From positions 1 through 41,333 of the IMG/VR virus record IMGVR_UViG_3300003322_000573: a DNA stretch of 41,333 nucleotides. One strand, written 5' to 3'. The translations under genes were made by a program, and so were the position numbers. Each line of letters opens with the position of its first letter. The stretch's first letter is position 1. The stretch is from a virus. Positions 9,175 to 41,333 of the stretch are shown here, piece after piece. The notes below the pieces were generated by a model. That model was not told where the DNA came from and made no database searches. It worked only from the letters and a program-made list of their open reading frames with translations.

Positions 9175-9864
9175 ATGAGCGCAGCGTCTACGTACAGGGA
9201 AATACAGGACAGGGTTCTTGACCAGCTTTCTAAGAACGATGCCACGACACGCAACCGAGTAAAGAACTGGATAAACTTAGGCCAGAACGATTTTGTGCTG
9301 CGAGAATTGTGGCCGTTCAGAGAAGAGACTGGAACACTGACGACAACCCAAGGAACACAAGAGACTGACTTATCCAGTACGTTCAGCGACCTTGACGAGC
9401 AAAACATTATTTCGGTCGCTCTGCAGGGCGAAAACCAGCGAAAACTCGTATACTGGCCATTTAACCAGCTACGTGCTAACAAACCAGACTTTGACTACGA
9501 CGCGCAAGGGGTGCCTGAGAGGTACTACATTAAGGGCGGCAACATTGGCTTTTGGCCTGTCCCGGCCGGTACATATACGGTGCTTATTGATTACTACAAG
9601 GTTGCGACCGAGTTAAGCAATGATTCGGATGTGTCTATTATTCCGGCAGGCTACCGCGAAGCATTGATGCACTACGCGCTTTCAATGGAGCACGATTACA
9701 ATACAGACCCGGATTTGGCGCAAAAAGCCATGAACCGTTACGAGGACATTGTAACGCTTGCCAGGCAGAACTTGCTTTCCCAGCCAAACGATACGGGTAA
9801 CTTTAGGATTATGGGGCCAGCAGATAGCCGAAACTGGACTGGCCTATACGGCGAAACGAGGTAG
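9175..9864 (+). CDS. Virion protein at the head-tail adaptor / tail tubular A position (229 aa)
   Basis: ORF track. Size and position upstream of a ~750-aa protein match the T7 gp11/gp12 arrangement. No diagnostic motif recognised. Confidence 0.55.
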   Translation: MSAASTYREIQDRVLDQLSKNDATTRNRVKNWINLGQNDFVLRELWPFREETGTLTTTQGTQETDLSSTFSDLDEQNIISVALQGENQRKLVYWPFNQLRANKPDFDYDAQGVPERYYIKGGNIGFWPVPAGTYTVLIDYYKVATELSNDSDVSIIPAGYREALMHYALSMEHDYNTDPDLAQKAMNRYEDIVTLARQNLLSQPNDTGNFRIMGPADSRNWTGLYGETR

Positions 9865-9866
9865 AA

Positions 9867-12137
9867 ATGCCGACAAACTTACGCCGAGACATCCGCTTCC
9901 AGCAAAAGCAAGAAGAACGGCTTGACGAGTTTAGTTTCGTGGGCGGTCTTTTTACTGATGCCCACGAAACTAAACTGCAGTCTAACCAGTCACCTAATTT
10001 GCAGAACGTTATGTTTAACGAAACGGGTTCCATTAAGACCCGTAACGGGTACACGAGGTACAACGGCAACCCTATTGGCATAACATCAGACCAAAGTAAC
10101 ACGGGAGCTTCGGCTGGAACCTTGGCCATTAGCACGATTAATAGCTACGTCGCCCAGACATTTATCCCTTCTACCACGATAAACGTGGTACAGGGTGACA
10201 TTTACTTGGCCATGAACACGTCGGGGCAGGAGCAAAAGGTAAGAGTTGAATTGTGGGCAACGAGTACGGGCCCGACTTCTATACTAACAACCCTTGCAAA
10301 ATCGCAGATACTTAATATCTCTGGAACGTCGGAAACGGCATATAGCTTTCGCTTTAGGACGCCTATTGCATTGTCTGCCTCTACGACGTATGCACTTGTC
10401 GTAAAGCCGTACCGCGTAAGCTCTAACGCCAGCATTAACCAGGTAAAAGTACATAGGACAGGAAGCGCTTATGCGAACGGACAAGTATATACGTCGTCTG
10501 ACGGCGGGGTGTCTTGGACGGGCGCGTCTTCACAGGATATGAAGTTTGTTATTTACCGGGCCGGAGACACCGGAAGCACGGGATTGCTTAGGTTTTACGG
10601 TACCGGCGGTATTCAGCAACTGTTGGCGAAGTTTGGAAATACGCTTTACCGTGGAAATGACGGAACGGGGGCGATGACCTCAATTAGCCTTGGAAATGGA
10701 AGCACGCTTAATGCATCGAACTTCATTGACTGGACGGTTTCTAACGGGACGTTACTGCTCGTGGATAAATCGAGCCGCATACAGAAGTATAGAGGCTCTA
10801 CGAATTCTAACTATACGACAGGCACAATATCGGTAACGAACGGCTCTAGCACTGTAACAGGCTCTGGGACGTCGTGGGCTACCTCTACGAACGCTGAGGC
10901 TGGTGAGTACATAAAGCTTCCTGATGGCAAGTGGTACAAAATTAGTAGCATATCTTCGAACACCTCGTTAGTAGTTGAGGTGAGTTATCAGGGATCCACC
11001 TCGTCTGGGCAGTCATACACGATTTCACCATGGGGAGAGGTACAGGGGAAACTTGGAAGCTCGACAGCGCCAGCTTCACTCGTACGCCCTACGCCAAGCT
11101 TTATCGCGAACCACATAAACCGCATTTGGACACTTGAAGGCAATACGCTTCGGTTCTCCGCATTGGATACATCCATTACGGAAGAGCATTTTAACGATTG
11201 GGATACGGCAAATAATGCGGGGACTATAATTATACCCTCTGGCGATGGGGATACTGGTACGGGACTGTATTCATTAGGAAACGCATTGTACGTGCTGCAA
11301 AAACACTCTATTTGGGGAGTATATGGTAATTCGCCCGCTAACTTTGAGCTACGCAACATAACCCATGAGGTAGGAATGATAGACAAGCGGACGCTCGTAG
11401 AGTGGAATAATATTCTCGTGTTTCTATCGGACAAAGGGATACAGTTTTTTGACGGTACGAACCTAAGAAACGTTTCCGACGGGGTAGTGAACAAACTCAT
11501 AGACAGCTGGGCTAACAAGACGTCTGCCGTCGCAACGCTTTGGAACAACTCGTATGTGATTGCCTATACGCCTTCCGGGGGTACATATAACTCAGAGCTG
11601 CTTATACTTGACCTTACGCGAAACGTGTATACGAAAGCCGTAGGCGTATATGCCTCTGCATTTAGCGCGTGGAATGGCGGAACTGACTCTAGTCAGGTTT
11701 ACTTTGCCTCTTCGAACCAAGGTTCGGTGTACAGGTGGGATAGTGGGACAAGCGACGATAAGTACGAAATACATACCCTGTACGATACGCCATCGCTTGG
11801 CTTTAGCGGTAACGTGAACGATAAGACGATAAAGAAGTTTTACCTACAACAGCTTGCCAAAGATGACTACGACATGAACGTGACGATGTTTGCAGACATA
11901 ACAGGCACAGAGATTACATCGCAAGTTAATTTATCTGGCGGCTCGACTGCGTTATGGGATGTTATGCAGTGGGACGTCGACAGCTGGAGTTCGGAAGGGG
12001 ATATTATTACGAGCCGTATTGCTGAGTTTCAGGGTATCGCCAAATTCTTGAAATTTAGGATTGAAGAAGAGGGGCTTGATACGGGTATAGAAGCGTTGGG
12101 TATTACGGTAACTGAAAGAGTAAGGAGACTAGCGTAG
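9867..12137 (+). CDS. Large tail protein at the nozzle / tail tubular B position (756 aa)
   Basis: ORF track. S/T/G/N-rich beta-type sequence. The call rests on synteny only. Confidence 0.55.
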   Translation: MPTNLRRDIRFQQKQEERLDEFSFVGGLFTDAHETKLQSNQSPNLQNVMFNETGSIKTRNGYTRYNGNPIGITSDQSNTGASAGTLAISTINSYVAQTFIPSTTINVVQGDIYLAMNTSGQEQKVRVELWATSTGPTSILTTLAKSQILNISGTSETAYSFRFRTPIALSASTTYALVVKPYRVSSNASINQVKVHRTGSAYANGQVYTSSDGGVSWTGASSQDMKFVIYRAGDTGSTGLLRFYGTGGIQQLLAKFGNTLYRGNDGTGAMTSISLGNGSTLNASNFIDWTVSNGTLLLVDKSSRIQKYRGSTNSNYTTGTISVTNGSSTVTGSGTSWATSTNAEAGEYIKLPDGKWYKISSISSNTSLVVEVSYQGSTSSGQSYTISPWGEVQGKLGSSTAPASLVRPTPSFIANHINRIWTLEGNTLRFSALDTSITEEHFNDWDTANNAGTIIIPSGDGDTGTGLYSLGNALYVLQKHSIWGVYGNSPANFELRNITHEVGMIDKRTLVEWNNILVFLSDKGIQFFDGTNLRNVSDGVVNKLIDSWANKTSAVATLWNNSYVIAYTPSGGTYNSELLILDLTRNVYTKAVGVYASAFSAWNGGTDSSQVYFASSNQGSVYRWDSGTSDDKYEIHTLYDTPSLGFSGNVNDKTIKKFYLQQLAKDDYDMNVTMFADITGTEITSQVNLSGGSTALWDVMQWDVDSWSSEGDIITSRIAEFQGIAKFLKFRIEEEGLDTGIEALGITVTERVRRLA

Positions 12138-20238: not shown

Positions 20239-20345
20239 TGACAGAGGCAGAGAGCAATAAAGACAAAGGAGAGAATATGGAAACCGCACCAGACCTATAC
20301 GTCGCACCAGACAATACAAAAGAACCGGGCGAGGAGGATAAGTAA
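20235..20345 (+). CDS. Small acidic ORF (36 aa)
   Basis: The ATG overlaps the upstream TGA and the TAA overlaps the endolysin ATG. Fills the gap exactly. Confidence 0.35.
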   Translation: MMTEAESNKDKGENMETAPDLYVAPDNTKEPGEEDK

Positions 20346-21028
20346 TGCCAGTACGACAGAAAACCACACCAAACTTAGGAGCTCCTGCAACTCGTGGATG
20401 GTGTCTTAAATTCGTAGACGACGCCGTAAGCGCTCCAAACCGCAAACCTACGGCGCAAGCTGCATTTAATACGGAGAAAGCGAACGGTAATATCCGTGAA
20501 GGAGAACCGCCTGTTGGCGTATGGGTGCCCATCTTTTTCTCGCTTAACAAAGGGGCGTATGCAGGCCTAGGCCATGTTGCCTGGGCGTTTAACCACGGAA
20601 ATGGGTGGATTGAAATCCACGACAGTGAGACGCGACCTGGAGCCCGGGCAGTATACCGGAACATCAACGAGGTACTTGCGTGGTTTGGCAACTTTGCTCC
20701 GCAGTACCTTGGGTGGTCGTACTGGGTAGATGGTGTACAGGCCGTGGAAGACTACGTACCAGCTTCTAACATGACTGGACAGAGAGTTGCGGCAAAAGGC
20801 ACCGCTACGGTGCTTGTAGACGCCTTAAACGTACGGAATGAGCCTAATAACGAAGCGGCCATTGCGGCGGTATACGGAAAGGGGCAAACGTTCAATTACG
20901 ACAGCTATATCGTAGCCGACGGGTTCGTTTGGTTGAGCTACCTGTCGTTCAGCGGCGTACGGCGGTACATTGCCGAAGGCCCGGACGATGATAATGACAA
21001 TAACGTGTGGGTATCTGGTGGGGTATAG
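20345..21028 (+). CDS. Endolysin: CHAP/NlpC-P60-type cysteine peptidase plus SH3b-type wall-binding domain (227 aa)
   Basis: Catalytic-type Cys in TRGWCLKFVDDAV and His in GLGHVAWAF. The C-terminus GTATVLVDALNVRNEPNNEAAIAAVYGKGQTFNYDSYIVADGFVWLSY is SH3b-like. GAGGAGG RBS. Confidence 0.8.
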   Translation: MPVRQKTTPNLGAPATRGWCLKFVDDAVSAPNRKPTAQAAFNTEKANGNIREGEPPVGVWVPIFFSLNKGAYAGLGHVAWAFNHGNGWIEIHDSETRPGARAVYRNINEVLAWFGNFAPQYLGWSYWVDGVQAVEDYVPASNMTGQRVAAKGTATVLVDALNVRNEPNNEAAIAAVYGKGQTFNYDSYIVADGFVWLSYLSFSGVRRYIAEGPDDDNDNNVWVSGGV

Positions 21029-21037
21029 GAGGATCAT

Positions 21038-21199
21038 ATGAAAGATGTACTAACTTTTGCAAAGACCCGTAAGTTCTGGGTTGCCGTGGTAGGTGCGGTT
21101 GTCACCTACCTTACGGTAAAGTTTGGCCAGTCACCTGAACTAAGCCTACTGACTGGCATTTTAACAGCTCTTGGCGTGTATGGAACGCCTAACGAATAA
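21038..21199 (+). CDS. Holin-like small membrane protein (53 aa, two TM segments)
   Basis: AGGAGG RBS. FWVAVVGAVVTYLTV and LSLLTGILTALGVYG. Lies directly after the endolysin. Confidence 0.55.
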   Translation: MKDVLTFAKTRKFWVAVVGAVVTYLTVKFGQSPELSLLTGILTALGVYGTPNE

Positions 21200-21208
21200 G
21201 GAGGATAT

Positions 21209-21367
21209 ATGCTACACGTACTAATGTTTCTCATGTGGCTGTTCACGGCCTTTGCCGTTTGTCACTATTCACTTAGTAAGTTCTTCAAAAACGACCTCAT
21301 CGTATCTTTAGTATCGGCAGTATTCGCGGTACTAGTAGCTGTGTTTGCCCCTGGTTTACTACAGTAA
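21209..21367 (+). CDS. Holin-like small membrane protein (52 aa, two TM segments)
   Basis: AAGGAGG RBS. VLMFLMWLFTAFAVCHY and LIVSLVSAVFAVLVAVFAPGLL. Confidence 0.55.
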   Translation: MLHVLMFLMWLFTAFAVCHYSLSKFFKNDLIVSLVSAVFAVLVAVFAPGLLQ

Positions 21368-21380
21368 ATATAATTTAAGC

Positions 21381-21414
21381 CGCTTATTGAGGATTAGAGT
21401 TTTTATAGTAATGT
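21381..21414 (+). promoter_or_regulatory. Motif promoter P6: CGCTTATTGAGG-16 nt-TAATGT
   Basis: -35 at 21387-92 and -10 at 21409-14. No start codon follows; the predicted transcript begins at a helix (21421). Confidence 0.55.
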
Positions 21415-21888
21415 CTTAGGTAACGTTTGCTTAAATGCTTTTAGTAAACGTTAGGGCAAGAGAAAAGTCCCTTTCGGGACTAGTTGCTCAAATGCTTTAT
21501 GTTTATAACATAGCAAATGAGAACCTACTTGTCAACACTCGTGGGGAGCTGAAGACCATTACGGTGCTGATGCGAGTTAAAATAAGTGAAGCAATGAATG
21601 GCTCAAAGCTAGGCGTATGGCTGTGATACGCCCCAGTCGTTGAATGGATCAACGTATGAGAAATTAACTTCTATCATATAAAAGAAAAGTTAGGAAACTT
21701 AACAACGAACAGTAGTTACCAGGGGTACTTAAATCTGTTCAATGAGAAACCAAATTAGGGGAGTTAATAACGCGCCAGCCATTGAAAGCCGTGCAGCCGT
21801 CCACTTCAATGATTGGTGCACTTACTAACTCCCCCGGTAGTTTACGGAAAAGAAAGAGGAGTTGCTTAGAGACTTTAAAAATAGTATC

Positions 21889-21922
21889 CGCTTATTGAGG
21901 TAGGTACGTGTTGTGCTAGTAT
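21889..21922 (+). promoter_or_regulatory. Motif promoter P7: CGCTTATTGAGG-16 nt-TAGTAT
   Basis: -35 at 21895-900 and -10 at 21917-22. The predicted start (~21929) lies immediately before the terminator hairpin. The integrase gene lies beyond it. Confidence 0.5.
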
Positions 21923-21932
21923 TAGTTTTACG

Positions 21933-21964
21933 AGGCAGCAGTTCCCATATACTGCTGCCTTTTT
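21933..21964 (+). terminator. Intrinsic terminator
   Basis: AGGCAGCAG (21933-41) pairs with CTGCTGCCT (21952-60): 9 bp perfect, followed by TTTT. The T-run is on the + strand only. Confidence 0.8.
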
Positions 21965-22173
21965 AGTTATGCTTGCATATGTGGTGTGTAGCGTGTTAGA
22001 GTACCTGTACAAATTGCCGTTTTAGTCTGGGTAGGACTATAGGGAAGTCTTTTTATTAACAAGAATACACATTACATATGCAATTATTTTATTTTTATGT
22101 TCTAATATAGTAGACTGCTAGCAAAATAAATAGTTACCATATGTGAGAGGAGGGTAGAGAAAGGGATACGTGG

Positions 22174-23142
22174 GTGATTCCGAAAACACTCAATAAACAT
22201 ACCATCCCCACAATGGTGCGTGGAAACGTAAAAAGAGACACGGTTATACTTGGCGAATTACTGCTGCTTTATTTGATTGACTTACGGGACGAAGACGCTG
22301 CCGTGCATACGATTAGAAACAGAGGGTATACGCTCAGGAATTTTATAGGATATCTTCAAGATAATCACGTCTATGCCATTGATGAGCTGGAAAAATACCA
22401 TATAAAGGAATACTTGGCCTTACAAGCCCAAAAGGGCGCAAGGATGACAACCTTAAACACGGTGAGAAGGTTCATAAAGTGGTTTTTGTTATGGGTCATG
22501 GACGAACGGGTTTCGTTGTTTAATTTTGACCCGAGAGGCGTGAAAGAACTAAAGGATAAAAGCGAGGGGGACATGAATTTCGATCCTCTCACTCCCGAGA
22601 CCGTGTACAAAGTGATTGCTTCCATGACGAACGAGCAGGACAGGCTTATGACCGCCCTGATATATGAGGGAGGCCTGAGGATTAGCGAACTCGTTGGGCT
22701 GAAGGTCGAAAGGATAAACCATGACGAATTACGGGTATATGGAAAAGGAGACAAGATGCGTCCTGTTTACATTCCTGACGACTTGGCTACCCATCTGCAG
22801 AGATACATAAAAACAGCCGGATACACGAGCGGTTACGTTTTCAGGCCTGATCCACGCTTCAGTCCACAGGAATGTTACTCGATCGACACGGTACGGCAGC
22901 GTATTAAAAGATGGTTCGATGCTGCTGGGGTAGATATGTGGGTTCACCTTTTAAGGCATTCCTTCGCTATTGGCATGGTACAAAGAGGGGCGGATATTCG
23001 TAGCGTTCAGATGATGCTAGGGCACTCGGACATTAACACGACCAGACGGTACTTAAAATTCAGCGACGTATTTATTAGAGAGCAGCGTAGGAAATACCAT
23101 CACAACAAACCGATACGCATTGTGGAAAACTTGACGACGTAA
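22174..23142 (+). CDS. int: Tyrosine recombinase / phage integrase (322 aa, GTG start)
   Basis: GGLRISELVGL (Arg I), HLLRHSFAIGMVQRGADIRSVQMMLGHSDINTTRRYL (H-x-x-R, His, catalytic Tyr). N-terminal SAM-like core-binding region. Confidence 0.9.
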   Translation: MIPKTLNKHTIPTMVRGNVKRDTVILGELLLLYLIDLRDEDAAVHTIRNRGYTLRNFIGYLQDNHVYAIDELEKYHIKEYLALQAQKGARMTTLNTVRRFIKWFLLWVMDERVSLFNFDPRGVKELKDKSEGDMNFDPLTPETVYKVIASMTNEQDRLMTALIYEGGLRISELVGLKVERINHDELRVYGKGDKMRPVYIPDDLATHLQRYIKTAGYTSGYVFRPDPRFSPQECYSIDTVRQRIKRWFDAAGVDMWVHLLRHSFAIGMVQRGADIRSVQMMLGHSDINTTRRYLKFSDVFIREQRRKYHHNKPIRIVENLTT

Positions 23143-23147
23143 GCGCA

Positions 23148-23176
23148 TTGACAAGCCGCTTAATGTCTGCTAGTAT
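23148..23176 (+). promoter_or_regulatory. Sigma-70-type promoter: TTGACA-17 nt-TAGTAT
   Basis: Perfect -35 at 23148-53, 6 nt after the int stop; -10 (TANNNT) at 23171-76. AAGCCGCTTA lies in the spacer. Points toward the tRNA fragment (antisense) and the 1.4-kb non-coding block. Confidence 0.55.
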
Positions 23177-23250
23177 AAGAACATACGAAACGGAAATAAT
23201 CCGTTCAGTCGAAACGATGACAATCTTACAAGGCCACGGCCGCAAGTAAC

Positions 23251-23299
23251 CGTCTCCGGTTTTGGAGACCGGTGCTCTAGCCACCTGAGCTACACTCCT
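23251..23299 (-). tRNA. Truncated tRNA-Trp(CCA): 5' acceptor strand, D-arm, anticodon arm and variable-loop start only
   Basis: The minus strand reads AGGAGTG-TA-GCTC-AGGTGGCTA-GAGC-A-CCGGT-CTCCAAA-ACCGG-AGACG. U8, A14, G18G19, U33 and A37 are all in place, and the anticodon arm is identical to E. coli tRNA-Trp (from memory). No T-arm or 3' acceptor strand follows. Confidence 0.7.
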
Positions 23300-23310
23300 A
23301 TATAGGAAAG

Positions 23311-23339
23311 ATTATATCATATCGTTTGATAATTCGGCA
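23311..23339 (-). promoter_or_regulatory. Extended -10 promoter (TGATATAAT) driving the tRNA fragment
   Basis: TGaTATAAT on the minus strand at 23319-23311, with a weak -35 (TGCCGA) at 17 nt. The tRNA 5' end lies 11 nt after the -10. Confidence 0.55.
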
Positions 23340-24727
23340 GTTAAAACAGTGACAATATGGGGTCATTGGAATAGTCGAATAATTGAATCGAGATTCATGC
23401 ATCCCTGTCTTGTTACTGATGGGGATTTTTCTTATCCTAGGCTCAAACGGCAATTTGTACCTAGGTAGGAAAAATCCCACCATTATCATATTCATGTAGG
23501 TACATGGCGGTACAAGGATTGGGAGATTTCTTGTACCGCTTAACCTAAGTTACATCCATTACTGGATATACAAGTAAACGGTAACTATAAGAAAACAAAA
23601 TCGTTAGCCAACGGGAGACGGTGAAGGCTCCTTACGAAAGTAAGATACTCCCTCTTATGTAGCCTACCAGAAGTAAGATCCATCAACCTAGTGATTGATG
23701 GTTAATTAGTCCGCACAGTGGTAAGACTAGGGCACGCCACCTTACTTCACTTGTATATTCAAACTGGCCATATAAGTAGTGTGGACTTCTATATCCCCTC
23801 GCCACGCGAAGCCTGTATTCGCGGCTTATATGGCTTGCCAGTAGTAAGTGGCGGGGTCTAATTGTACAGACACGGCCGCTTCAACGAGCTTTAAACTCGC
23901 CGAGATGCGAGGCAGGGAAACTGTGAGAAGTTTTCGACAGCGGCTTACTTCTGGCACCAGTAATGGATGTAACGAATGTTATAGAGCAGCAGTGAGGGAA
24001 CGGCTAATGTTTACACGCGAGGAGCCTTGCGGTGACTAGGCGGCAAGTGGCCATTGGATGATACAACCAAATAAAAAAACTACTCATTAGCCAACCGCCC
24101 CTCTCTCATGTTCTATAACACGTTAAGCGTAGTAGTGCTGGAAATGAACAATGTTATGTCATGACCGATAGACATAGGCACACAAAGGATCGGATCTGAG
24201 GTGTCTTCCCCTCATCAGGCAAGCTAGTAAAGACCTGATGAGTGCACGGAGCATCATTTCTAGCACCATATGCTTAACACCTCACATAGCAAGGTGAATC
24301 GGTAAGTGCGAACCAGCGAGTCCCCGTAAGGGTGGAATGAAACATCTGGGTAAATCTGAGGATGCTATCTAGGCTTAGCGGCCGACGTTAATCAGTGAAT
24401 CGTATTATCCGCGATAGCTGCCCTGCTGAAATGATGACGACCTTTCATCGGGTCTAGGCAGGTAAGAAGCGGAGCAAGCCATACTTACCTTATCGGTTCA
24501 TCCTGCTATGTGAATAGATACCAGGTTTTAGAACATACCAATGCTAGCAGTAACCGAAACGGCGAAAGCAATTCTGCAGCACAGCGAGTAACTAAGGCAT
24601 AGACGTTACTGCTAGCTTCGTGTGTTCTAAATTCCATGCACCTACATGAATAGTTGGCGGGTATGCGAGGCCCGCCAACGTTGAGAGTGGTGTTGGCGCC
24701 AGGTGATGCCCACCCTTACCTGGCGCT
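23340..24727 (+). ncRNA. Candidate giant (~1.4 kb) structured non-coding RNA or structured leader
   Basis: ORF-free in all frames. More than 12 long helices, including 10-13 bp perfect stems, nested multi-tier domains, GNRA tetraloops on the + strand and one pseudoknot candidate (details in findings). The strand assignment is tentative. Confidence 0.55.
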
Positions 24728-24781
24728 ATCTCTGCTCTTGAATGTATGTAAAAACAAGTAACTCGCCGGAAGGAGTGAAGT

Positions 24782-25051
24782 ATGAAAGTAGATAACGTTA
24801 TGCAACAGGCCGAAGAGGCATTGGATTACTGGGAAAGTGGTTCGATGTGGGCGCGTCTTATTGAGCGTGACATAAACGACAACGACATGGAGGCACTGCA
24901 GTTCCATGTAGATGAAGCAAACGCCCAAAAAAACCTGCAGGAAAGCTTTACACATGATTTTATTGACCGGCTGATAGATGGGGAAGACATTTCTTTTAAC
25001 ACGGATAACTGGCCAGTAGTGCAGATGCCTAAAGGAGTTGGCCGTGAGTAG
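24782..25051 (+). CDS. Hypothetical early protein (89 aa)
   Basis: CCGGAAGGAG RBS 7 nt upstream. First gene of the rightward early operon. Confidence 0.7.
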   Translation: MKVDNVMQQAEEALDYWESGSMWARLIERDINDNDMEALQFHVDEANAQKNLQESFTHDFIDRLIDGEDISFNTDNWPVVQMPKGVGRE

Positions 25052-39672: not shown

Positions 39673-41333
39673 ATGAACAAGGACAAAAAAGCCAAGTCGA
39701 CGCAGCAACTCGTTACTGACCGCTTTAACAGGGCGCGGGACTACCGCGTAACCTCACAAGACGAGATATGGAAGCGCTCGTATAACAACTGGCGCGGCAT
39801 TTTGGACACCTCACTGTACCCGTGGCGCTCCAAGCTGTTCATTCCATGGAGCTTTACCGTCGTGGAGACGATTATTCCCCGGGTATTTGCCCGTGACCCA
39901 AAGTGGCGGGCTATTTCCCAAAGCCCTGACTTTCCACCTGATGGGCCGAGGGTCGTAAACGATCTTCTTTCGTACCAGTGGAACCGCATGGGCATGCGCC
40001 TGAAGATGTATGACTACATTAAGGATTCCCTGATGTACTCCAAAGGCTACGCGAAAGTAACTTGGAAGCACCAGATAAAAAACAAGACGTTCATGGAGCC
40101 GGTTGTCGGTAAGAATGACGAGATAACCTTTGAGAAAAAAGTGAGGAGCGACGTAGAATATGACGACCCAATGGTTGAAATCGTTGATCCGGCTGATATT
40201 TATATTGACCCTGACGCTACTACTTCGGGCTGCTATGGTGATGGCCTTTACCTTATCCATCGCAAGACTGTTCCGCTCGAGACGCTGAAGCAAAATCCGA
40301 ACTACAAGAATGTCGACAAGATAAAGCAGGCCTCTTACGCCGACCAGTACATGGACAAGCAGATGAGGTACCGGGACGAAGTGCCCCCGAAAGACAAACA
40401 CAAAGATTTGGTGGAAATACTTGAGTACTGGGAAGAAGACCGCCTGATCGTGGTGGCTAACAGGAGCGTCGTTCTTCGTGATTCTCCCAACCCATACTCC
40501 CATAAGCAAATTCCGTTCGTTGAGCTGGATGATTACCGTGACCCGCACCGGTTATATGGACAAAGCGAACTATCCGTTATTGACCCGTTACAACGCGAGA
40601 TTAATTCCATACGGAACCAGCGGCGTGACTACGACAATCTCGCCCTTAACCCGGTAATCCGTATGGTTCCGGGCGTCCTAAGAAATCCGAACTCCGCCGT
40701 TATGGCACCTGGCAGCGTATGGATGGTTTCTGACCTGCAGTCGATGGATACGTTTGCGCTTCCACAACTGCAGGGAAGCGCTCGGGAAATTGAGCAGCAG
40801 ACCGCCCAAGACATTAAAATGACGACCGCGATTGACGAAATTGGCATTGGCCTGCTGCCTGACAACCCGCAGAGGCGTAGCGCGACCGAAGTAGTAACGT
40901 CGCAGCAATCTGCCGGGCGTCGTTTCGCCATGAAGATAGCCCTGCTGGAAGAAGCGGTGAAGAAAATTGGCAAACTCGTATTTGCCCTTAACCAGCAGTT
41001 CCTTGATAAGGAAAGGATGATCCAGATTGTCGGAGAGCGGGGGGCAACGGAATGGGTACAGCTTTCGCCAGAGGACATACGCGGTGAATACTACATTGAC
41101 ATTGAAGCGGGCTCTATGCTTCCCAAGGATGAGATTGCCCAGCGCAAAGAAGCTATGGAGCTTTTGCAGTACATCACGCCGATAATCACGCCGGTAGTGG
41201 GAACCAACCCGGAAATTATTATGCCGGTCGTGAGAATGGTGCTTGATACCTTTGAGCTTCCGGGTAAGCAGGATATTTACGATGAACTGCAGAAGGTATT
41301 AGGGCAGGGCCCAGGCCCAGGCTGCGCAGGCGC
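39673..41333 (+). CDS. Portal protein (first ~553 codons; the ORF runs off the window end and continues at nt 1)
   Basis: Open frame with no stop, which is why it is absent from the ORF track. Lies directly after terL. Starts MNKDKKAKSTQQLVTDRFNRARDYRVTSQDEIWKRSYNNWRGILDTSLYPWRSKLFIPWSF... The size fits a portal. Confidence 0.75.
   Translation, partial: MNKDKKAKSTQQLVTDRFNRARDYRVTSQDEIWKRSYNNWRGILDTSLYPWRSKLFIPWSFTVVETIIPRVFARDPKWRAISQSPDFPPDGPRVVNDLLSYQWNRMGMRLKMYDYIKDSLMYSKGYAKVTWKHQIKNKTFMEPVVGKNDEITFEKKVRSDVEYDDPMVEIVDPADIYIDPDATTSGCYGDGLYLIHRKTVPLETLKQNPNYKNVDKIKQASYADQYMDKQMRYRDEVPPKDKHKDLVEILEYWEEDRLIVVANRSVVLRDSPNPYSHKQIPFVELDDYRDPHRLYGQSELSVIDPLQREINSIRNQRRDYDNLALNPVIRMVPGVLRNPNSAVMAPGSVWMVSDLQSMDTFALPQLQGSAREIEQQTAQDIKMTTAIDEIGIGLLPDNPQRRSATEVVTSQQSAGRRFAMKIALLEEAVKKIGKLVFALNQQFLDKERMIQIVGERGATEWVQLSPEDIRGEYYIDIEAGSMLPKDEIAQRKEAMELLQYITPIITPVVGTNPEIIMPVVRMVLDTFELPGKQDIYDELQKVLGQGPGPGCAG
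41311..41333. repeat. Terminal direct repeat (copy of nt 1-23)
   Basis: Exact 23-nt identity with the window start. Confidence 0.9.

Follow-up and report, generated by a model that had tools for sequence, protein, structure and literature searches.

What is made from a stretch of phage DNA that begins with a promoter, ends with a terminator and holds no credible gene between the two? This question is raised by the virus record IMGVR_UViG_3300003322_000573, which was analysed over its whole length of 41,333 nt (the window; coordinates refer to it unless a relative is named). Between the last open reading frame (ORF) of the lysis cassette, ending at 21367, and the integrase gene int (22174-23142) lie 806 nt (21368-22173) that contain only short ORFs. 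The first-pass annotation, made from the letters alone, had placed in this interval a discrete unit of about 0.55 kb running from promoter to terminator, and comparison with related phages backs that proposal. The interval most likely yields a folded RNA of about 545 nt together with a tiny antisense RNA that would pair with it. We see a slightly better than even chance that it is a genuine non-coding transcription unit within a lysogeny cassette of RNA, int and phage attachment site (attP), held in check by the antisense RNA.

The relatives on which the comparison depends were found through the integrase. Only four proteins of at least 60% identity were returned, and in three of the phages (L001, L002 and L007; int 61-69% identical, starting at 10001, 10001 and 630, respectively) int follows a comparable stretch without genes. 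In L003, the fourth, and in L004 and L006, whose int is more distant, a protein gene lies directly upstream of int and there is no gene-free stretch. The features of the interval are the following.

21380 to 21414, plus strand: P6, a phage-specific promoter, CCGCTTATTGAGG, with -35 TTGAGG (21387-92), a 16-nt spacer and -10 TAATGT (21409-14)
21421 to 21964, plus strand: predicted long non-coding RNA of about 545 nt, its start placed by leaderless-promoter geometry and its end by the terminator
21421 to 21453, plus strand: H1, the 5'-terminal hairpin, flush with the predicted start and with box 1 at its apex
21427 to 21441, plus strand: box 1, TTGCTTAAATGCTTT, second target site of the predicted antisense RNA, at the apex of H1; its equivalent in L001 is CATCAAATTGCTTT
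21466 to 21481, both strands: H2, AGTCCC-TTTC-GGGACT; on the minus strand a GAAA-tetraloop hairpin followed by TTTTCTCTT, that is, the predicted antisense terminator
21484 to 21498, plus strand: box 2, TTGCTCAAATGCTTT, exact complement of the predicted antisense seed
21535 to 21507, minus strand: host-type promoter TTGACA, 17 nt, TG-n-TATGTT, near-consensus, found by promoter scan about 20 nt upstream of H2 on that strand
21457 to 21500, minus strand: predicted antisense RNA of about 43 nt, AUAAAGCAUUUGAGCAACU and then the terminator hairpin, from promoter and terminator scans and folding
21612 to 21654, plus strand: two neighbouring hairpins (21612-32 and 21638-54) with helices 21612-18/21626-32 and 21638-43/21649-54, from folding
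21687 to 21740, plus strand: hairpin AAGTT-AGGA-AACTT (21687-21700) and a composite hairpin closed by GAACAG/CTGTTC (21707-21740), from folding
21758 to 21834, plus strand: four-segment hairpin of 77 nt (9+3+7+7 pairs), with GUCCAC in the loop and GUUUA after the hairpin
21888 to 21922, plus strand: P7, the second perfect copy of the promoter motif, -10 TAGTAT (21917-22), predicted start at about 21929/30
21932 to 21964, plus strand: intrinsic terminator found by scan, with an 11-pair stem (6 G-C), an 8-nt loop and T5

Coding potential and promoters of the interval

Absence of a protein-coding signal is a general mark of structured non-coding RNAs, and the interval bears it. The first-pass annotation had seen no credible ORF between the lysis cassette and int and had set aside the sole candidate, 21435-21626 (63 aa), for lack of a ribosome-binding site. 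Both judgements hold: the 806 nt contain no conserved frame, and this ORF has no ribosome-binding site, is not hydrophobic, belongs to no family that could be matched and is not conserved in L001. Neither it nor the other short ORFs had a match in Pfam, PHROG or phage tblastn. When all six frames were compared, the 40 stop-to-stop segments of at least 15 aa had no counterpart in the homologous regions of the relatives; protein-level conservation of a small ORF, which the annotation had named as an observation that would speak against its unit, was thus looked for in the relatives and not found. Gene callers placed no gene in the homologous gaps of L001, L002 and L007, and indels (1, 2, 4 and 24 nt), frame-breaking ones among them, occur inside the conserved core of these relatives. 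By all these comparisons the interval is non-coding.

It is highly improbable, in our estimate, that the region codes for one or more small proteins, ORF 21435-21626 for example, or for a type I toxin with an antisense RNA. Both boxes in the window hold an in-frame ATG, and convergent RNAs that share direct repeats and a terminator resemble the par system of pAD1; in L001, however, the box-associated starts that are the equivalents of these two ATGs meet stop codons within 2-6 codons, and the missing ribosome-binding site, the non-hydrophobic product and the lack of six-frame conservation and of database matches all speak against translation. As a type I toxin of the par/fst kind the ORF also fails to fit, being non-hydrophobic, interrupted in L001 and without a family match.

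The transcription signals belong to a class that is specific to this phage. The motif CCGCTTATTGAGG occurs in perfect copies at 21380 and 21888, and its core CGCTTATTGA occurs in 11 copies on the plus strand, all of them from 36249 through the genome ends to 21889, which is the span or the edge of the structural/lysis module. When up to 3 mismatches were allowed, 22 matches were obtained against 9.9 expected, and no shuffled sequence reached 22. In the nine other copies an ATG stands 6-10 nt after the -10 hexamer, so these promoters should give leaderless mRNAs; both copies in the interval are without such an ATG. For P6 the annotation had noted a motif with no start codon behind it, and the motif is present as described, in a promoter class that is conserved: L001 and L002 share the motif, and among its copies there are those that precede the homologous element in L001 (9159) and L002 (9382). 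By the spacing seen at the leaderless promoters, transcription from P6 would begin at about 21421, where the 5' hairpin also begins and where the annotation had predicted the 5' end.

Elsewhere in the genome the motif CGCTTATTGAG(A/G)-N16/17-TAnnnT is found at 790, 2531, 8137, 9134, 19031, 36248, 37227 and 39629 (plus strand), with the ATG of the first gene of an operon 6-10 nt further on, which indicates that leaderless mRNAs may be widespread in this phage. Unlike these operon-first genes, internal genes have ribosome-binding sites of the GGAGG type. The conserved CGCTTA upstream of the -35 suggests that a phage-encoded factor may be involved; none was identified among the proteins of the window, most of the early ones having no Pfam match.

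Counterparts of the element in related phages

Plain blastn of the window interval against the relatives found nothing, and the counterpart was recognised by alignment and inspection. The 5' module, some 140 nt at the start of the window RNA, aligns with L001 at an equal offset from the promoter; H1, H2, the two 15-nt boxes and a block TTGTCAACA-nTCG-nGG are common to both. All helices listed in the first-pass annotation were found where it had placed them. The helix 21421-28/21446-53 extends to 15 pairs in H1, and the 12-pair consensus of the window and L001 contains two compensatory changes and three of the G.U type that pair on the plus strand only.

Further downstream, L001, L002 and L007 have a common core (more than 200 nt) with an identity of about 90%, compared with 71-74% nucleotide identity of their int genes. 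Within it, stretches without any change, the longest of about 70 nt, alternate with short variable hairpins that change by compensation (GCCT/AGGC vs GACTCT/AGAGTC, for example), and whole extra hairpins have been inserted, in L001 (24 nt and about 165 nt) as well as in L007 (about 110 nt). Such a pattern fits selection on a folded RNA better than it fits recent transfer.

The link between this core and the window comes from structure. For the large hairpin and its small downstream neighbour, a covariance model of 110 positions (R2) was derived from the three relatives, the window being left out. Its best match in the window was at 21753-21859 (plus strand), in the exact syntenic slot, with 17.4 bits and E = 0.028 (70.5 kb, both strands; the E-values of these models are rough, by a factor of about 5 either way). 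In this structure-fitted alignment 22 of 26 model pairs remain standard in the window; both bases differ in 14 of them, a single base in 1 and neither in 7. In the alignment GUCCAC adjoins the 3' strand of the apical stem, and the hairpin is followed by GUUUA. Independent folding gave the same four-segment shape, with 9+3+7+7 pairs over 77 nt in the window and 8+3+6+6 pairs over 79 nt in the relatives, the single-base bulges matching. G.U pairs that form on the plus strand only were seen twice in stem P3 of the window and once in L002. From these agreements we conclude that the window appears to carry a divergent member of the relatives' element. Loss of the helices in relatives would have spoken against the annotated unit; H1 and the 77-nt hairpin instead keep their shape through compensatory changes, as judged from four sequences and a structure-fitted alignment. 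More tentatively, the hairpins at 21687-21740 may correspond to a helix GAGAnn/AATCTC in the relatives that encloses AACC...GGTT.

The minimum free energy of the 546-nt unit was -165 kcal/mol vs -135 for shuffled sequences (z = -4.5). The opposite strand folds about equally well, and folding energy alone therefore gives no strand. The long RNA is nevertheless assigned to the plus strand, because P6 and the terminator are oriented that way, because the G.U changes in H1 and P3 pair only there and because the plus-strand folding energy is modestly lower in three of the four sequences.

More distant homologues were sought widely. Exact searches with the int and endolysin protein sequences found no record, and scans of IMG/VR with int and endolysin peptides found no close relatives. 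A scan of GTDB genomes and IMG/VR with an int profile returned only distant recombinases of 23-40% identity. Blastn in distant mode with 21200-22300 against 50,697 phage records gave no match, and a 20-mer of the relatives' core had 0 matches in IMG/VR. A 16-mer had at least 120 matches in JGI metagenomes and, among those listed, no fetched locus resembles the RNA. Literature searches found no report of a structured RNA linked to an integrase in phages of Saccharibacteria.

Could the stretch then be mosaic spacer DNA, left behind when the int cassette was inserted and carrying hairpins and promoter-like and terminator-like sites without function beyond terminating the late operon? The lack of further homologues in IMG/VR viral contigs, GTDB genomes and the JGI metagenome matches listed would suit this, as would a window core that cannot be aligned to the relatives by sequence and a 5' domain and a P7-terminator module that come and go between relatives. 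Spacer DNA would not, however, be expected to keep promoters, terminators, duplicated boxes and helices by compensatory change between the window and L001, to give a structure-based match exactly in the syntenic slot, or to be more conserved in its core than the neighbouring gene. We consider this explanation improbable.

The element keeps its place in differently arranged genomes. In L001 and L002 the structural module is inverted compared with the window, and on its left the element adjoins the small-terminase side in place of the lysis cassette; the element still lies directly upstream of int on the same strand. The inverted part is the whole structural/lysis module, as seen against int and the early genes. 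L001 (7603-9113) and L002 (9288-7961) also differ by an inversion of about 1.5 kb between the small-terminase gene and the RNA promoter. Both large inversions adjoin the tyrosine recombinase gene.

The predicted antisense RNA, the 3' end and the relation to int

H2 had been listed in the first-pass annotation as one more helix of the long RNA. The helix is present, and it is best read as the terminator of a convergent minus-strand RNA, which had been overlooked. The terminator scan called 21481-21466 (minus strand), and folding of the predicted antisense RNA gave a 17-nt single-stranded 5' tail and the terminator hairpin. The tail is the exact complement of box 2 and complements box 1 with one G.U pair. 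The duplex of seed and box 1 was calculated at -19.2 kcal/mol in the window and -18.9 kcal/mol in L001, compared with -5.8 +/- 2.1 kcal/mol for shuffled seeds against box 1 in the window and about -6 to -7 kcal/mol overall.

An equivalent antisense unit is found in L001, with the promoter TTGACA-17-TG-n-TAAGAT at 9310-9282 and a terminator at 9258-9241 (both minus strand). The H2 counterpart in the same place, AACCCTC-TTCG-GAGGGTT with a T run, has every stem position changed and compensated, and the terminator loops GAAA (window) and UUCG (L001) arise on the minus strand only. The box sequence is TTGCTYAAATGCTTT in the window vs CAYCAAATTGCTTT in L001, duplicated within each phage, and in each phage box 1 and box 2 differ only by C to T at one position, which allows G.U pairing with the seed. 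This concerted change of the boxes, with a difference that wobble pairing accepts, is as an RNA-RNA interaction predicts. Convergent promoters, overlapping transcripts and a terminator of its own, which mark a cis-encoded antisense pair at the sequence level, are all present as predictions.

In L002 the antisense module is absent and a promoter-proximal terminator is found instead. This strong terminator (9421-9495; GGCTCGCCC...GGCGGGC and a T run, -21.8 kcal/mol) lies 45-110 nt after the promoter, and an upstream segment, ATAGACGGT, is able to pair with its 5' arm and loop, ACCGTCTAT. The 5' region of L002 thus looks like a terminator/antiterminator switch, which may be another way of gating the RNA.

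At the other end of the unit, the annotation had described a textbook plus-strand terminator. The scan found it at 21932-64 as a G+C-rich stem-loop followed by a T run, as Rho-independent termination requires, folding at -19.6 kcal/mol (z = -7.0). P7 lies within the unit as annotated, with a distance of 2-3 nt between its predicted start and the hairpin where 3-4 nt had been given, and the terminator hairpin would also be the 5' stem-loop of any P7 transcript. This arrangement before int recurs in L007, where a second phage promoter is followed, 2-3 nt after its predicted start, by a terminator hairpin of -14 kcal/mol. The P7-type module is absent from L001 and L002, and is therefore regarded as optional and not as part of the RNA proper. 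In these two only a weak hairpin and T run stand right after the last core helix and before int, so that a stop signal follows the core in all four phages, strong in two and weak in two. A 3' attenuator working through alternative pairing of the 3' arm of the big hairpin was considered and dropped as possible but weak, since folding did not recover it. Beyond the terminator, the int leader is conserved (71-78% identical in all four phages) and structured, and it may contain a weak promoter, TTGCAT, 17-18 nt, TAnnnT (21973-22002 in the window), whose position is conserved in the four leaders.

These observations bear on whether the stretch is a long cis-acting leader of the int mRNA, with transcription from P6 entering int unless stopped. 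The level of int would then be set by the antisense RNA in the window and L001, by the 5' terminator/antiterminator in L002 and by the 3' hairpin and T run. Because two genomes are without a strong terminator, this is a serious rival, and we hold it to be possible while doubting it. It would account for an element that always lies directly upstream of int on the same strand, whatever its left neighbour, for the weak hairpin and T run that alone separate RNA and int in L001 and L002, for the strong early terminator of L002 with its pairing segment and for the conserved, structured leader beyond 21964. It would not explain why a core of more than 200 nt stays at about 90% identity while int drifts to 72%, nor the whole-hairpin peripheral insertions, which are typical of large folded RNAs; and in the window (-19.6 kcal/mol) and L007 (-14 kcal/mol) a strong terminator and a second promoter part the RNA from int.

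A number of points weigh against a folded, antisense-controlled RNA that acts apart from int. The comparison covers four sequences in all, metagenomic and three of them mutually close, and the 90% identity of the core could reflect recent exchange of the module and not selection. An nhmmer profile of the relatives' core gave E = 1.4 against the window, which is not significant, and a 187-position covariance model (R1) gave 7.1 bits, not significant window-wide; the pair counts obtained with R2 come from an alignment fitted to the structure. Folding is about as good on the opposite strand. The promoter calls are consensus matches in a poorly known host with uncharacterised promoters. L002, with its terminator in place of the antisense module, means that antisense control is not universal, and the lack of a strong terminator before int in L001 and L002 is no less compatible with a leader than with a trans-acting role.

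Genome setting, possible role and comparison with known systems

The window is a circularly closed, complete genome of about 41.3 kb: nt 1-23 equal nt 41311-41333, and the portal ORF (about 600 aa) spans the ends. Nearly all genes are on the plus strand, in the order terminase, portal, capsid, tail, lysis, gene-free interval, int, about 1.6-1.9 kb without long ORFs, and early genes, which include a PDDEXK nuclease and VRR-NUC. The lysis cassette consists of an endolysin (20345-21028, SH3_5 domain) and two small membrane-protein ORFs. The int product is a XerD-like tyrosine integrase in which a Pfam search found no arm-binding domain. Its nearest named relative, at 45% identity, is from a Candidatus Saccharibacteria genome, where it ends a prophage adjoining tRNA-Trp, and the host of the phage is probably a member of the Saccharibacteria.

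The segment 23258-23302, downstream of int, is 91% identical to the 5' half of this prophage-adjoining tRNA-Trp (L004 11038-11114), and a tRNA-like fragment at 23209-23299 (minus strand) scored 27.6 bits against the Rfam tRNA model, just below the gathering score, with no call from ARAGORN. The tRNA-Trp fragment is the probable attP core. Given this likeness 3' of int, the attachment site lies downstream of int and outside the studied interval, and the idea of the RNA region as attP was dropped.

The position of the attachment core also bears on whether the region acts as DNA, for instance by binding the integrase or an accessory factor, as an origin of replication or as a signal for packaging, with the inverted repeats as protein-binding or cruciform sites. 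In favour are its position next to int, the numerous inverted repeats, a pair of 15-bp direct repeats spaced 57 bp apart and the equal folding of both strands. The attachment core, however, is 3' of int in the tRNA-Trp fragment, the integrase is XerD-like with no arm-binding domain found by Pfam, the G.U-type substitutions preserve helices only as plus-strand RNA, the GAAA and UUCG tetraloops with flanking T runs are RNA signals, and the element is bounded by a promoter and a terminator. A role as DNA is therefore very improbable in our judgement.

Within the 3.4 kb or so from 21368 to about 24780, int is the sole protein gene. Searches with the endolysin and the PDDEXK nuclease found many phage relatives, and in four contigs (L229-L232) the fetched stretches contain no such RNA and no int. 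Both are missing from L231, whose lysis cassette is the closest to that of the window (endolysin 79% identical), and neither was seen in the stretches fetched around the closest PDDEXK relatives (L229 and L230). On this basis the RNA, int and attP are taken to form an accessory cassette within a large phage group.

Several further signals flank int. An inverted repeat of 25 nt brackets the gene (22007-22031/23436-23460), with 24 of 25 positions pairing as plus-strand RNA, two of them G.U; in L002 a bracketing repeat of different sequence (9923-9940/11351-11368) is 94% complementary. The right arm, 23436-60, is beyond the attachment core, inside the loop of a 13-bp hairpin (23422-34/23466-78), and would therefore be separated from int upon integration, as with lambda sib. 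Right after the int stop there is a near-consensus promoter with an extended -10 (TTGACA-17-TG-n-TAGTAT or TAATAT; 23148-23176, plus strand), which is conserved in L001 (11026-54), L002 (11050-78) and L007 (1609-37). Transcription from it would cross the attachment site in antisense to the tRNA-Trp fragment, and in the window a terminator-like hairpin follows at 23401-23434. The second stretch without long ORFs, 23143-24780 (about 1.6-1.9 kb; the gap to the next long ORF, PDDEXK, ends at 25037), contains the inverted repeats 23541-77/23945-81, 23489-507/24634-52, 24282-306/24489-513, 23977-98/24099-120, 24543-54/24605-16 and 24684-704/24718-38, which suggests that it may be another large structured RNA. 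It had no Rfam match, and the relatives are similar to it in the attP region and the last 200 nt or so only.

How might the unit work? As P6 is of the structural-gene promoter class, the long RNA should be made together with the structural genes; P6 would fire with the structural and late-module promoters and the RNA would be made mainly then. The antisense promoter is of the host-consensus type and should be constitutive. The antisense RNA would form about 43 perfect base pairs with box 2 and H2 and would also pair with box 1, opening the protective 5' hairpin; this pairing should leave the long RNA open to RNase III and to decay that depends on the 5' end. The long RNA would thus be kept low in the lysogen and in early infection and would accumulate only with P6 strongly on. 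The terminator at 21932-64 would end it and insulate int from read-through of the late operon, and P7 would restart transcription 2-3 nt before the hairpin, giving an int message with a 5' stem-loop.

For the long RNA itself, our best guess, and the least supported step of the scheme, is a trans-acting protein-binding scaffold or regulator for the int/lysogeny module and not a simple leader. A trans-acting role is favoured because constraint on the RNA exceeds that on int, because it has expansion hairpins and because a terminator separates it from int in two genomes. It is unlikely, though worth stating, that in this phage group the lysogeny module is run on RNA, the cassette consisting, apart from int, of structured non-coding DNA to either side of int and attP. 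The long RNA, gated by the antisense RNA where the two promoters face each other, would then be an immunity or decision element or a directionality cofactor for a minimal XerD-like integrase without a recognisable excisionase.

If the RNA does take part in integration, excision or immunity, it would represent a new way of controlling lysogeny; if not, it would still be a new family of ornate phage RNA. To our knowledge, large structured phage RNAs are few (GOLLD, ROOL) and their functions are still unknown. The present RNA is experimentally approachable through its defined promoter class, its predicted antisense regulator with two boxes and its strict link to an int/attP(tRNA-Trp) cassette, which only a few phages of a large group carry. 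Saccharibacteria, the likely hosts, are almost unexplored as regards phage biology and gene regulation.

The annotation had placed the length of the unit in the range of ROOL-type RNAs, and the likeness goes no further than size. The ROOL model is included in Rfam release 15, and cmscan against this release, run on the whole window at the gathering threshold and on 21000-25000 at E <= 10, gave no match to ROOL, GOLLD or c4. In L001, L002 and L007 no ROOL or GOLLD match was obtained at E <= 1. The sole permissive matches were the weak tRNA-like one at the attachment site and a chance match to GibS (E = 8.4). Hammerhead and other small ribozymes, T-box, tmRNA and RNase P were rejected, having no Rfam support, and a bridge-RNA-like guide for the recombinase was rejected as no complementarity of at least 12 nt between RNA and attachment core was among the repeats found. 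In our reading the element is not ROOL, GOLLD, c4 or another Rfam family and would represent a new structured RNA family.

Compared with known systems, the likeness is partial in each case. In c4 of P1 and P7 and in CI RNA of P4, the seed of a small phage RNA pairs with duplicated short boxes in a longer phage transcript and so controls that transcript. Duplicated target boxes for a small-RNA seed are found here too, but c4 and CI RNA are processed from the strand of the target itself and control an antirepressor or an early operon, whereas the small RNA predicted here would be transcribed from the opposite strand, between a promoter and a terminator of its own, its target is a non-coding RNA, and the window does not reach the Rfam c4 model. 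The convergent promoters, shared stem-loop terminator, direct repeats and hairpin-apex target recall pAD1 par (RNA I/RNA II), CopA/CopT and RNA-IN/RNA-OUT; unlike in pAD1 par and CopA/CopT, the target is a structured RNA of about 545 nt without an ORF for a toxin or replication protein. As with lambda sib, int expression may be tied to transcript context, the leader segment 22007-31 being complementary to 23436-60 beyond the attachment core, but sib is a local hairpin downstream of int, and this likeness concerns the flanks and not the RNA. A self-contained promoter-to-terminator unit between lysis cassette and int/attP is in the classic position of a moron, with the difference that the cargo is an RNA and not a protein gene and that the promoter is of the phage late-module type and not lysogen-active. 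With GOLLD and ROOL the RNA shares its phage origin, a length of several hundred nucleotides without an ORF, many helices, GNRA-capped hairpins and variable peripheral hairpins. GOLLD expression is reported to rise upon lytic induction, and here the promoter class is common with the late genes. Unlike GOLLD and ROOL, the window RNA is without the usual adjacency to tRNA genes, is tightly linked to an integrase and has a predicted antisense RNA dedicated to it.

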